Of a stretch of 64,000 nt of DNA, positions 14,506-38,971 are shown in pieces (within the stretch, counting starts at the first letter, position 1; each line of letters opens with the position of its first letter). The notes beneath the pieces are model-generated. The model did not search any database, was not told where the DNA came from, and was given only the letters and a program-made list of their open reading frames with translations. The DNA is from a bacterium (GTDB lineage: Bacteria; Lernaellota; Lernaellaia; JACKCT01). The stretch covers positions 1,885-65,884 of the forward strand of contig JAIOHV010000203.1 of assembly GCA_019912885.1 (NCBI GenBank), read 5' to 3'. The position numbers and the translations under genes were made by a program.

Positions 14506-15768
14506 ATGAATGCAAGGCTCATGCTCGCGTTGTTTTGCACCGCCGCCGTGTTCGCGCTTGTCGTCGGGTTCGCGTGCGTTCCGGGCGACGATGATGACGA
14601 CGACGATGACGACGACGACGATGACGACGACGAACTTCCCACCGAAAGCATCAAGACCATCGAGGCGATCGCCGTCGGCGACGACGCGGGCCGATACAAG
14701 AACGGCCGATGGAGCCCGGACGGCGACGTGCCCGCCGAGGCCCTGCCGCTTTCGACAATCGATTTTCGCGGCCCGGATTTCGGGTTCGCGGCCGGCGTCG
14801 GGCGCATCCTGCAATACGAAGACGGCGAATGGACCGGCGCCGCGGCGCCGATCGAGCCGGACCTCGATGTCCGCCGCATCCTGATCCACCCGGACGGCCG
14901 CGTGTTCGCGTTCGGTAACCGCGGCGTCGATTCCGGCGGCGTGCTGGTCACGCGCGGGCTCGACGGAATCTGGACGCGCGACGACCTGTCGAGTCTGACC
15001 TCCGACGGCGTTTTCATTCGCGACGCGATGCTCTCGGACGAGGGCGTCATCCTGCTCGTCACCGTGAACCTCTCCGCTTACCTGTACATGGCCGGCGGGG
15101 TCGCACCCGCGTCGGTGCAGGTCTATGCGTTCGATCCGACGAATTTCCTCACATACAACGCCATCGGCCGGTTGTTCGACGGGCGCATCCTGCTTGGCGG
15201 CTGGCGCAGCGACGGCATCAACCGCTTCGGATTCGTGATGGTGGAGGACGGGCTGGGCGGCTACATGCCGTTCGAACTCCCCGCGAGCGACTGCCCGGTG
15301 CAGGAAGTGCATCGCTTCGAATCCATCGCGCTCGCCACGTTCATGGTCGGCAAGTGCGTCCGGTCGGTGCTGTACGCATACGAGCAACCGGCGTGGACGG
15401 AGATACCGCTGCCTGGCAGCAAAGGCGCGGATTGGCGCATCAACGACCTCGGCTTCATCTCGCGGCGCGAAGGATTCGCGGTGGGTTATGACGACACGTC
15501 CGACGACCTGCTTACGCTGATTCGCGAGCCGAACGGCTGGGTGCTGATGGAGCCGTACGAGGGTGACACCCCGGGCCGGCGCCTGAATGCCGTCGCCGTC
15601 TGGCCGGCGGGCGCGTCGCTCGACGATGACGACACCGCGGACGACGATTCGCTCGATGACGACACTTCCGATGACGACACGGCCGATGACGATACCGCGG
15701 ATGACGACACCGCGGATGACGACACGCTCGATGATGACACGGGAGACGACGATACGGTGGGTTCGTGA
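14506..15768 (+). CDS. Secreted/lipoprotein hypothetical protein with N-terminal poly-Asp (D16) and C-terminal (DDDTA)n repeats
   Basis: ATG at 14506 after a GGAGAG RBS; signal/lipobox MNARLMLALFCTAAVFALVVGFAC; D-run; C-terminal 15-nt x ~8 repeats encoding DDDTADDDS.... Confidence 0.55.
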   Translation: MNARLMLALFCTAAVFALVVGFACVPGDDDDDDDDDDDDDDDELPTESIKTIEAIAVGDDAGRYKNGRWSPDGDVPAEALPLSTIDFRGPDFGFAAGVGRILQYEDGEWTGAAAPIEPDLDVRRILIHPDGRVFAFGNRGVDSGGVLVTRGLDGIWTRDDLSSLTSDGVFIRDAMLSDEGVILLVTVNLSAYLYMAGGVAPASVQVYAFDPTNFLTYNAIGRLFDGRILLGGWRSDGINRFGFVMVEDGLGGYMPFELPASDCPVQEVHRFESIALATFMVGKCVRSVLYAYEQPAWTEIPLPGSKGADWRINDLGFISRREGFAVGYDDTSDDLLTLIREPNGWVLMEPYEGDTPGRRLNAVAVWPAGASLDDDDTADDDSLDDDTSDDDTADDDTADDDTADDDTLDDDTGDDDTVGS

Positions 15769-15920
15769 CGAATTACGAGTGACTAGTGACGCAGGCCATC
15801 CCGCGTCGCCCGGTGTTGACGGAGTCGCGCGCGTGGGCAAGCGGCCGCCCCTATCGTATTGGCGAGCGGACCTCTCGGAAGAACCACCCGCAGCCGAGTT
15901 GGAGTTCGGCGCTCCCGCCG

Positions 15921-37058: not shown

Positions 37059-37339
37059 CAGAAACCCTCCGAAAAACTGATGCTCGCAAATTCGCAAGCG
37101 CCTGACAACGACGCCAGGCGGAACGCAAAGTCCGAAAGCGACAACGAAGGCCACGTCGTTTTGTCGCGTATCGAGAAACCCCATGGAGGCGCGCCTACTC
37201 CGTACACCACGTCCCGCACGTCCGACGTCTTGTGGTTTAGCCGTGTCGTATCGACATGGAACGGGACGGACAACACCGTATATGGTGCATCGGTTTTCCA
37301 CGCGGTGTTGAATTTTTACGAATTATTGGGAAAATTTCC

Positions 37340-38971
37340 TCAATAGCCGCAGCAGCCCTTGTCATCGTCGTCACCCCCGCCATCGGCGGGGTCGCCGGAA
37401 TCGTCGTCGAGCGCTGTATCGTCGTCGTCCGGTTCTTCGGGTTGAGTCGTGGTGGTGGAGGTCGTAGACGAACTCACGGTTGTCGTACTCGTCGATGTCG
37501 TCGAGGCGGACATAAAAAACACGTGGGTCTGCATTTCGTACGATCCGGGTCCGACGTAATTTTGCGCGGTCCAGGCAAAATCGGCGTAACCGTTGTTTTG
37601 AACGTCGCCGCCTTCGCCGCCTAGGTCGTAGCCGATATAGGGGATGTAGCTGTACGTGTAGTCGTCCCAGTCGTATTCCCAAAACGAAGTTGTGTCGACG
37701 CCCGTTGCCGATCCGAACATAATTCGTATGATTGATCGGTCCATTGTAATCGCGATGTCGTCATATCCGTCGCGATTGATATCTCCAAGGTATTTCGCGT
37801 GGGCATAACCCGATATGGGGGGAGGAAGGATCTGTGTTCGAAATGGTAATATCCCCAAACTAGATCCGAAGAAAATATAGATTTCGGCTGTGCCTTGATC
37901 ATACCCCCATAAATCGTCGTTTCCGTCACCGTCAATATCACCAGCTCTTTCAAGCTCACACCATGCAGGAAAATCGGCGCCGGGGTTGCTTAATGCTATT
38001 TCGTCAGGTTGATTGCGCGGGCCGGTTTCACTCCCGTGAAATATGTCGAGAAAGACAGGCTGTGACCCGTAACCATTTGCGCAAATCGCGAAATCGTCAA
38101 ATTTGTCCCCGTTGACGTCGCCGAGAGCAATAATTCCGAATATTTCTATACCGTCATAATCATAATCCCACACAGGCGCGTTAAAAACGTGCGTCGAATC
38201 GTCGCCGTAAAATGCTTCGATTATGTGTAAATCATCGTTGAATTCCGGAGTACGGTTCCAAATTTCACGTTGCCAAACGAGATCGCTATAGCCATCGCCG
38301 TTTATGTCGATATCCGACGCCACCGAATCCGAATAGTAGTAGCGGTTCTGAAAGTTTCCCGTTAGAATTTCGACGGTATCTGCTTCAAGTCCGTAGGGCG
38401 TCCCGTAGAAGAGAAAGAACCGGCCAACCGAGCCAAAACCACCGGGCCAATTCCAATCATGAATCAACAAATCGCTTATGCCGTCTGCATTGACGTCTCC
38501 GGCGTTCTGGATGCCTTGGCCGAATATAGAAGAATCGTCACGAAATAGATATTGGTCCGGCTCGGCCGACAAGCCGTCCGCGCTCCCGAAAAATACCAGG
38601 ATCGTGCTCGAGTTTTGCTCGTATTCGCCGGATTCGTAGTCTAGGTGTCCGTATCCTAACAGCAGGTCGTCGTAACCGTCCCCGTTTACGTCGAGAAAGA
38701 CGATCGTCGGGCCATCGAGATTTTGGTTCCAGTCCGGATGGTCGCCGTTTGCCGGATAGGACCAGGACGGGGCGGGTCGGTCGGGAATATCCAGTGCCAA
38801 AGCTGCGTGGCAAAAGATTCCAAAAAATATAATAATCGGAATCAGGATAATTCGAAAAATACGTGAAACATTGAACGAAGACGACACTGCCCGCAACGCG
38901 GATTTCGGATCGGCTGCGTTTCTCACGTTCCCGCCCCTCCCGATTTTCAGGAGAATCCCGCCGCATTTCAC
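37340..38971 (-). CDS. Secreted FG-GAP-repeat beta-propeller protein (7 blades) with a C-terminal Ser/Thr-rich, acidic tail ending GCCGY; lower-GC gene
   Basis: Seven DxNxDGxxD Ca-binding FG-GAP loops (DVNGDGYDDLL, DVNADGISDLL, DINGDGYSDLV, DVNGDKFDDFA, DIDGDGNDDLW, DINRDGYDDIA, ...); AT-richer codon usage; the start may be GTG at about 38926 after GGGAGGGG. Confidence 0.65.
   Translation of the reverse strand: MKCGGILLKIGRGGNVRNAADPKSALRAVSSSFNVSRIFRIILIPIIIFFGIFCHAALALDIPDRPAPSWSYPANGDHPDWNQNLDGPTIVFLDVNGDGYDDLLLGYGHLDYESGEYEQNSSTILVFFGSADGLSAEPDQYLFRDDSSIFGQGIQNAGDVNADGISDLLIHDWNWPGGFGSVGRFFLFYGTPYGLEADTVEILTGNFQNRYYYSDSVASDIDINGDGYSDLVWQREIWNRTPEFNDDLHIIEAFYGDDSTHVFNAPVWDYDYDGIEIFGIIALGDVNGDKFDDFAICANGYGSQPVFLDIFHGSETGPRNQPDEIALSNPGADFPAWCELERAGDIDGDGNDDLWGYDQGTAEIYIFFGSSLGILPFRTQILPPPISGYAHAKYLGDINRDGYDDIAITMDRSIIRIMFGSATGVDTTSFWEYDWDDYTYSYIPYIGYDLGGEGGDVQNNGYADFAWTAQNYVGPGSYEMQTHVFFMSASTTSTSTTTVSSSTTSTTTTQPEEPDDDDTALDDDSGDPADGGGDDDDKGCCGY

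Follow-up and report, generated by a model that had tools for sequence, protein, structure and literature searches.

The locus described here raises the question of why exported proteins that are otherwise unrelated should carry the same kind of acidic module. A sequence-only reading of a 64,000-nucleotide stretch of contig JAIOHV010000203.1 (the whole stretch is referred to as the window) had drawn attention to modules rich in aspartate (Asp, D) in three of its exported proteins: a lipoprotein called hypothetical there (protein 1), a ceramidase-like lipoprotein (protein 2) and an FG-GAP propeller (protein 3). All of these modules are present, each in an open reading frame (ORF) with a signal peptide. 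Two classes can be told apart, a lipoprotein tether at the N-terminus and a tail at the C-terminus that ends in cysteine (Cys), together with a tail lacking Cys on protein 1; the earlier reading did not make this distinction. The explanation that we favor, with chances that we judge to be about even, is that the poly-Asp/(DDDTx)n module is a selected, lineage-wide acidic tether between a terminal Cys-based attachment point and a folded domain.

A six-frame scan, with a threshold of at least 8 Asp per 15 residues, finds exactly four Asp-rich stretches in the 64 kb, all located within the three named ORFs:

14566-14652, plus strand: Asp-rich stretch
15613-15762, plus strand: Asp-rich stretch
36855-36977, minus strand: Asp-rich stretch
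37361-37435, minus strand: Asp-rich stretch

No such stretch is found in 100 mononucleotide and 100 triplet shuffles of the window (0 in each set). The modules are far from chance and are not random low complexity. They are present in about 3 of 10 exported proteins of the window versus 0 of about 40 others. The unit (DDD, followed by T, A or S and then x) and the composition are common to the three proteins, but the sequences are not near-identical, as they had been described. Tandem 15-bp and 30-bp units are detectable in the module DNA, and the 15-bp units are visibly duplicated. An origin as pure trinucleotide microsatellites is ruled out, because the Asp codons mix GAC and GAT at about the genomic ratio, as elsewhere in the genome.

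Protein 1 carries a module at each end:

14506..15768, plus strand: protein 1 gene, β-propeller lipoprotein of 420 residues (ORF), divergent from tolQ/exbB
14506..14577, plus strand: lipoprotein signal peptide with lipobox G-F-A-C, Cys24 at 14575-14577
14587..14634, plus strand: N-terminal acidic tether D15-E, beginning 3 residues past the lipobox Cys
15622..15756, plus strand: C-terminal (DDDTx)9 tail without terminal Cys, ending ...DDDTVGS

The signal reads ...LVVGFAC and matches the lipobox pattern (PROSITE PS51257-type, with the invariant Cys); F-A-C and F-F-A-C lipoboxes recur across the lineage. The lipobox Cys is followed by V-P-G and then by fifteen Asp and one Glu, rather than the sixteen Asp reported earlier. 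Profile searches place the protein in no Pfam or NCBIfam family. In an AF2 model, the core is an all-β propeller (pLDDT 80-93), while both D-rich ends have pLDDT below 50 and are predicted to be disordered. The best Foldseek match is to Ycf48-type propellers (E 4e-7).

Only two homologues of protein 1 are detectable among 5.8 billion proteins, P0001 and P0002 (36% and 27% identity), and both keep the acidic stretch after the lipobox Cys (CSGGDEDDEE... and CSDDSDDDDD...). A third relative, L002, has CSGD10 after the lipobox and a C-terminal DDDT-type repeat; it is the sole confirmed relative from more than 600 raw matches in a scan of genome contigs with D-rich peptide patterns from an alignment. 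The C-terminal DDDT-type repeats are conserved in all three. The orthologues adjoin the Tol-Pal/ExbBD cluster divergently, as the window gene does. In three distant relatives (14506-15768 here; L001, 10001-11206; L003, 10001-11245), the gene is located divergently upstream of tolQ/exbB-exbD-tonB/tolA-tolB-pal, and protein 1 may thus belong to the Tol-Pal system as an accessory specific to this lineage.

The module of protein 2 is located between a lipobox-like Cys and the first domain:

35598..37058, minus strand: protein 2 gene, ceramidase-like lipoprotein of 486 residues; Pfam Ceramidase_alk N-terminal domain, E 9e-12
36858..36983, minus strand: lipobox-like Cys26 (C-S-C-G) and 38-residue tether D7-SGTAT-DDDAA-D5A-DDDTAA-DDDAA-DDDA

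The earlier description as ceramidase-like stands in part. The match to the Pfam N-terminal domain (PF04734) is at 44.8 bits, above the cut-off of 32.1, but that to the NCBIfam neutral-ceramidase equivalog is at 19 bits against a cut-off of 1200, and the assignment is therefore at the family level only. The representative library contains 7232 homologues. The protein reads ...FAPGCSCG-D7... ahead of the Ceramidase_alk domain. Its putative lipobox, A-P-G-C-S-C-G, is atypical, and neither of the two Cys residues matches the strict pattern; the orthologues have canonical F-S-C, F-A-C or Y-G-C lipoboxes. In P0123, P0124 and P0126 (46-50% identity) and in a closer relative, L130, a D-rich tether of 40-50 residues connects the lipobox Cys to the first strand of the domain. 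In more distant homologues, the tether is G/P/T-rich, short or absent.

Protein 3 has its module at the C-terminus, and here the Cys follows the acidic residues:

37340..38971, minus strand: protein 3 gene, FG-GAP propeller (Pfam FG-GAP, E 6e-20) with a signal peptidase I (SPI) signal peptide, ...CHAALA before and LDIPD after the cleavage site
37445..37504, minus strand: Ser/Thr-rich linker STTSTSTTTVSSSTTSTTTT, conserved in P0003 and P0004
37358..37438, minus strand: C-terminal acidic region EEPDDDDTALDDDSGDPADGGGDDDDK
37340..37357, minus strand: terminal Cys motif G-C-C-G-Y, followed at once by a TGA stop

FG-GAP repeats are recognized above threshold (PF01839, 71 bits; PF13517, 50 bits). 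The start is probably the GTG at 38926, judging by GGGAGGGG upstream of it, rather than position 38971 as first given. No hydrophobic segment follows GCCGY in protein 3. The close orthologues P0003 and P0004 (67% and 45% identity), which end in EGCCGC and NSCCGS, retain the Ser/Thr linker and the acidic region as well as a terminal CCGx. FG-GAP homologues in other phyla have at this same end either type IX secretion system (T9SS) tails (PF18962; Bacteroidota) or tails made of Cys, a transmembrane (TM) helix and Arg residues. The gene is also a compositional outlier (GC 0.517, versus 0.64-0.65 for the genes of proteins 1 and 2 and for the whole window) and was possibly acquired recently. Two paralogues, MBZ0272055 and MBZ0271351 (67% and 45% identity), belong to the same accession series, possibly one metagenome-assembled genome, and both keep CCGx ends.

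The N-terminal form recurs in relatives. In 36 cases from related contigs, DDD[T/A/V]x repeats and a pure D-run follow the lipobox Cys, with a median length of 47 residues and a span of 19-124. Most of these proteins have clear lipoboxes, and in five related contigs many lipoproteins besides the orthologues show the lipobox Cys, 0-4 residues and then poly-D. At the fourth position of the unit, T is counted 178 times, A 58, V 39 and S 17, and the conserved unit DDD[T>A>V>S]x recurs lineage-wide. Tethered lipoproteins include GH31, a PAF-AH-type lipase, ceramidase-like and Lcl_C proteins and several unknowns. Pal/OmpA and BamD/YfiO-like lipoproteins are without a D-tether. This split parallels, by analogy, that between surface-exposed and periplasm-facing lipoproteins of Bacteroidota. 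The same five contigs also encode proteins with SPI signals that end in poly-D, a Cys pair and a stop (...DDGCGC in a Kelch propeller, ...SGGCGC in another propeller, and ...KDDCCCG).

The modules are restricted to exported proteins. Among neighbor genes at five related loci, counted without the genes used to fetch the loci, D-modules are found in 8 of 40 that encode an N-terminal hydrophobic signal and in 0 of the 36 others (p=0.004), and the equal frequency in cytoplasmic proteins that was to refute the earlier reading is therefore not seen. Across 27-67% identity, the modules keep their position and composition while sequence and length drift, which argues for selection on a disordered module. 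The observations support modules that are lineage-wide and shared by unrelated exported proteins. Of the functions suggested by the sequence-only reading, it is the lineage-specific localization or sorting signal that gains from this distribution (exported proteins only, throughout the lineage, on unrelated cargo).

The C-terminal form was surveyed by a DNA scan of JGI/ENA metagenome contigs with the pattern GACGAYGAYGAY-N(0-30)-GGNTGYGGNTGYTRR, which gave at least 120 loci. These contain at least 67 distinct ORFs ending in (DDDxy)n-Dn-[GS]GCGC, and most of them carry upstream DDD[T/A/V]x repeats, which the pattern had not demanded. The unusual GCCGY terminus singled out earlier thus has company, as its orthologues end in CCGC and CCGS and dozens of secreted proteins end in Dn-GCGC. 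Among the matches listed, metagenome 3300031111 contributes about 21 tagged ORFs and 3300009775 at least 14, the latter on long contigs. Both samples also hold orthologues of proteins 1 and 2, and therefore one population has dozens of tagged genes.

Together with the variant endings from other loci, the ORFs of the scan make up a set of 75 tagged proteins, in which the median tail length is 60 residues (interquartile range 46-76) and the tails are 51% Asp. Cores of at least 100 residues are present in 69 of the 75 and form 29 homology clusters. The cargo families include papain-like (Peptidase_C1), gingipain-like (C25) and subtilisin (S8) peptidases, the glycosidases GH10, GH18 and GH84, metallophosphatases of the purple-acid type, and FG-GAP, Kelch and other propellers. 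Two tagged proteins contain the NCBIfam 'choice-of-anchor' J and X domains, a family name given to domains that occur with many different C-terminal anchors. The ending is G-C-G-C in 65 of the 75 tails, with the variants CCGY, CCGC, CCGS, CCCG, GCGS and GCGF. Two Cys residues are located within the last 4-5 residues of nearly all tails, and the endings GCGS and GCGF have a single one. A stop codon, TAA in some genes and TGA in others, follows the Cys motif in every tail. The DNA downstream of these stops encodes no helix, and there is no Arg cluster after the Cys. Read-through or selenocysteine after GCGC is ruled out by the mixed stops and by the lack of anything helix-like downstream.

The two forms are almost mutually exclusive. 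A classical AxA-type SPI signal peptide is found in 48 of 50 complete tagged ORFs, and a lipobox in 0 of 50, whereas 14 of 35 background exported proteins of the lineage have one by the strict PROSITE-type pattern (Fisher p=9e-7). Only one ORF, L069, has both the N- and the C-terminal Cys form. It is 104 residues long (Ga0116163_1028861) and has nothing besides a lipoprotein signal, then C-G, some 60 Asp and GCGC at the end, a bare tether with Cys at both ends. A small secreted family of 200-290 residues (L016, L019, L021, L057 and L067) has the Dn-GCGC tag at the C-terminus and a mature N-terminus that opens with DDDT/DDDV repeats straight after the SPI site (between AFA and Q); one of its members has a choice-of-anchor J domain.

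The two forms are also mirror images of each other in composition. Counted from the lipobox Cys, the Asp frequency at positions +2 to +6 is 0.47, 0.64, 0.83, 0.83 and 0.89 (for +2, a count of 7 of 36 tethers is also given). From this peak of 0.83-0.89 at +4 to +6 it falls to a plateau of about 0.5-0.6 for some 40 residues. In the C-terminal tag, with positions counted back from the final Cys, the peak is 0.80-0.92 at -5 to -9, followed by the same plateau. Gly is the most common neighbor of the Cys on both forms. Moreover, the order C-x-C-G-Dn, which mirrors Dn-G-C-G-C, is found in five N-terminal cases, one of them protein 2 of the window.

In the mechanism that we propose, a single module would be used in either polarity, in the order terminal Cys, D-run, DDDxy repeats and folded domain. 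The N-terminal form would run from the signal peptide through the lipobox Cys (an Lgt/Lsp-type site), 0-3 small residues (often Gly), the D-run and the DDD[T/A/V]x repeats to the domain. The C-terminal form would run from an SPI signal peptide through the domain, the DDD[T/A/V]x repeats, the D-run and a Gly to the Cys pair and the stop, the pair being GCGC in most relatives and GCCGY in protein 3. The mirrored arrangement and the mutual exclusion of the two forms point to the C-terminal Cys as a second kind of anchor, and so do the surface-type cargo and the known anchors at the same end of homologues in other phyla. One or both thiols would be covalently modified, with a lipid as the leading guess, and neither a TM helix nor proteolytic trimming would be required. 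The disordered, polyanionic segment, about 50-60 residues long, would form an extended stalk that binds divalent cations (Mg2+/Ca2+) and keeps hydrolases and adhesin-like propellers at the cell surface yet distant from it. Modification of the Cys, its attachment partner and the location at the cell surface are what we infer from these features. Cation binding by the stalk may hold as a property even if the primary function is another.

Several points weigh against this proposal. An all-versus-all BLAST of the ORFs of 62 loci finds no gene that recurs beside tagged genes and, among the neighbor ORFs, no candidate modifying enzyme. It is not obvious how the Cys of a strongly acidic, helix-less tail would reach a membrane enzyme of the Lgt kind, and the sequence D-D-G-C does not constitute a lipobox. 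In protein 1 and a few relatives, the C-terminal DDDT tails have no Cys, and the acidic module must therefore have some role independent of a C-terminal anchor. In E. coli, Asp beside the lipidated Cys leads to retention in the inner membrane, the opposite destination. Finally, the metagenome scan required a D-run, GCGC and a stop, and the share of secreted proteins without the tag cannot be read from its counts.

The closest known C-terminal signals are those of the MYXO-CTERM type. MYXO-CTERM and JDVT-CTERM, like Synerg-CTERM and CGP-CTERM, consist of a short motif with an invariant Cys, a TM helix and an Arg cluster, and signals of the MYXO-CTERM type are cleaved by CPBP/Rce1-like myxosortases after predicted lipidation (bioRxiv 10.1101/2023.06.07.544157; PMC11980579). 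The substrates have a Sec signal and adhesin or hydrolase cargo, number dozens per genome and need the Cys for anchoring, and the TraA signature, ...GGAFCCGT..., has two nearby Cys residues (bioRxiv 10.1101/2023.06.07.544157; PMC11980579). The tag described here shares the N-terminal signal peptide, the Gly/Cys signature and the type of cargo. However, it stops at the Cys motif, with no TM helix and no Arg cluster, and it has a poly-Asp stretch of about 60 residues ahead of the motif. As the protein ends there, an intramembrane protease step is neither needed nor possible. TIGR03901 and related models do not match the tagged proteins or the isolated tails (NCBIfam, E up to 10). The tag is thus not a member of the MYXO-CTERM family, since it lacks the helix and the basic cluster and matches no curated hidden Markov model. 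An unrelated minus-strand ORF of 592 residues from the same population, L038 (Ga0116164_10000094), ends in ...SGGICGDKDTAVQYVAMLSLICMGLVLVRRRHQ, which has the classical motif with Cys, TM helix and Arg cluster (Cys+TM+RRR), and the helix-less Dn-GCGC tag and the classical tail may therefore coexist.

The position of the Cys residues has a eukaryotic analogue. Rab proteins end in CXC, CC or CCXX, where a Cys pair in the last 2-5 residues takes lipid with no CaaX-type proteolytic trimming, and GCGC, CCGY, CCGC, CCGS and CCCG occupy the same pattern space, as an analogy only. In contrast to the tagged proteins, which are Sec-exported, Rab proteins stay in the cytosol, where a geranylgeranyl transferase modifies them. 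No prenyltransferase was found here, though no search aimed at one was made.

The tails are matched by no Pfam or NCBIfam model, as whole proteins or as isolated tails (NCBIfam, E up to 10), and no description of them is found in Pfam, NCBIfam release 20 or the searchable literature. Literature searches returned nothing relevant on aspartate-rich lipoprotein tethers or on poly-Asp with a C-terminal Cys, and the description of Ca. Lernaellota/FEN-1099 (PMC9324843) has no mention of such tails. The T9SS C-terminal domain (Por_Secre_tail, PF18962, a β-sandwich of about 80 residues) gives no Pfam match in protein 3 or in the tagged proteins, and the signal peptides of the tagged proteins conflict with type I secretion, whose substrates have no N-terminal signal. 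The C-terminal form (with GCCGY in the window) probably represents a sorting or anchor tag of a new, helix-less kind. We put forward tentatively, and with some doubt, the more specific proposal that Dn-GCGC/CCGx represents a new bacterial class of C-terminal anchoring, without TM helix or basic cluster, in which the Cys would be modified (for example, lipidated) and left untrimmed by an enzyme of its own, on dozens of exoenzymes per genome and with poly-Asp as an obligatory part. Such a class would be to helix-bearing, trimmed signals in prokaryotes what the Rab CXC/CC motifs are to CaaX boxes.

An alternative to the tether, one that we consider unlikely, is that the acidic modules are a sorting determinant for lipoprotein or secretion machinery and not a passive stalk. 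The N-terminal form would then resemble the lipoprotein export signal (LES) of Bacteroidota in flipping proteins to the surface, or the enterobacterial Asp(+2) signal for Lol avoidance in retaining them at the inner membrane, and at the C-terminus a translocon of the outer membrane would recognize the module as a tag. The LES has the form C-(S/K/Q)-(D/E)n at +2 to +6, with the consensus SDDDD or K-(D/E)2 (PMC5080379; PMC6222051). The consensus of B. fragilis, SDDDD, suffices for exposure at the surface (PMC5080379), and surface lipoproteins with degradative functions have the signal, which periplasm-facing lipoproteins lack (PMC5080379; PMC6222051). The tethers described here likewise have acidic residues directly after the lipidated +1 Cys, within the same +2 to +6 interval, and they are found on hydrolase lipoproteins and not on housekeeping, periplasm-facing ones. 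A poly-D lipoprotein N-terminus also has weak, sub-threshold matches to the N-termini of Bacteroides lipoprotein families (E 0.015-0.06).

However, the N-terminal form is ten times as long as the LES, and a signal of about five residues leaves unexplained both tethers of 19-124 residues with a conserved five-residue repeat and the C-terminal Cys pair, and the mirrored C-terminal counterpart is unknown in Bacteroidota. The host is not labeled as Bacteroidota either: an identical DnaK is labeled '[bacterium]' and the nearest named relatives (82-85%) 'Deltaproteobacteria bacterium', which are labels and not a phylogeny. In enterobacteria, Asp(+2) is a Lol-avoidance signal, and disordered linkers separate the lipid anchor from the domain in lipoproteins. 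Both are said to go back to work of Yamaguchi in 1988, Hara in 2003 and El Rayes in 2021. The Asp beside the lipidated Cys and the disordered linker are seen here as well, but their length and composition far exceed a +2/+3 rule. The LES and the E. coli Asp(+2) signal imply opposite destinations, and the destination can therefore not be read from precedent.

Less likely still, in our judgment, is that the tails serve primarily as high-capacity binders of cations, minerals or polycations (Ca2+/Mg2+/Fe; carbonate, phosphate or sulfide minerals). Exoenzymes would be stuck non-covalently to particles or to cation-bridged lipopolysaccharide, with the thiols adding affinity for soft metals and sulfide minerals. 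A composition of 51% Asp over some 60 residues would suit this, and poly-Asp in biomineralization proteins is a classical binder of Ca2+ and of minerals. The lineage appears to be anaerobic (PFOR, radical-SAM and hydrogenase-type neighbor genes), and the tail thiols would therefore stay reduced; the tails without Cys can also be accommodated. Asprich, accripin11 and calsequestrin, which function in biomineralization or Ca2+ buffering, have similar long, disordered, Asp-rich segments for which high-capacity cation binding is expected. These are eukaryotic matrix proteins, however, and are not associated with a terminal Cys, a lipobox or enzyme cargo. Canonical Ca-binding repeats (RTX GGxGxD, thrombospondin type 3, dockerin/EF-hand) were considered and set aside, as no Pfam or NCBIfam model for them matches the tails. 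Cation binding would moreover leave unexplained why lipoproteins are strictly excluded from carrying the C-terminal tag, why the terminal G-C-G-C is invariant and why the D-run is always next to the Cys.

It is improbable that the terminal Cys pair instead forms disulfide or metal bridges to a partner or to other tagged proteins, with poly-Asp as a solubilizing spacer in a covalently cross-linked surface layer or in oligomers. Such bridging would account for the two Cys residues near the end of nearly all tails and for the 104-residue ORF that consists solely of a signal and C-G-polyD-GCGC, but it is at odds with the anaerobic context, with the single-Cys endings GCGS and GCGF, and with the lack of a recurring Dsb-type or partner gene near the 62 loci. 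A functionless, neutral expansion of GAY-rich slippage repeats, tolerated in disordered ends in a GC-rich genome, is strongly disfavored and highly improbable, since the 15-bp and 30-bp tandem units and the fast drift among orthologues that suggest it stand against modules kept at the same termini across 27-67% identity, none in proteins without a signal, mixed GAC/GAT codons, Cys adjacency at both ends in a mirrored gradient, and 29 unrelated tagged families.

Three further features of the window were observed. Intergenic, purine-rich 7-bp tandem arrays (GAGGAAA x9, GAGGATC x4, AGAAAAG x4 and CATTCCC x5), often located straight after stops, are found at the following positions:

43689-43753: 7-bp tandem array
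45575-45605 with 45723-45753: 7-bp tandem arrays
50567-50596: 7-bp tandem array
13240-13270 and 13315-13347: 7-bp tandem arrays
18098-18133 with ~18150-18180: 7-bp tandem arrays

Two of these have an inverted partner array at a distance of about 20-120 bp and could therefore form long hairpins, and the arrays may be a REP-like or terminator-like element family. In the sulfatase-family gene at 41456-43687, the segment 42175-42307 has 7.4 copies of an 18-bp unit (93% matches), which encodes the hexapeptide (A/V)RDDKA in the N-terminal region of the sulfatase/phosphodiesterase-domain protein. The genes at 20594-21604 and 21229-22623 are tandem paralogues for membrane-anchored GDSL/SGNH-like hydrolases (Lipase_GDSL_2, E 1e-5, below cut-off), located between lptG/lptF and a gene of the MBL fold.

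Each of the C-terminal sorting signals LPXTG, PEP-CTERM, GlyGly-CTERM, MYXO-CTERM and the T9SS C-terminal domain has brought to light a new family of enzymes and a new mode of protein display on cells. To our knowledge, all short C-terminal sorting signals share the architecture of motif, helix and basic cluster, and a tag that ends at the Cys after about 60 residues of poly-Asp breaks this rule. The mirrored N-terminal form extends the marking of a lipoprotein class by acidic residues beyond Bacteroidota. For annotation, poly-Asp tails of this kind should not be counted as meaningless low complexity. In this uncultured and apparently anaerobic lineage of polymer degraders, the tag is carried by proteases, glycosidases and phosphatases. 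Should it be a true anchor, an unknown modification pathway would be implied, and a simple regular expression would predict the surface exoproteome of these organisms.

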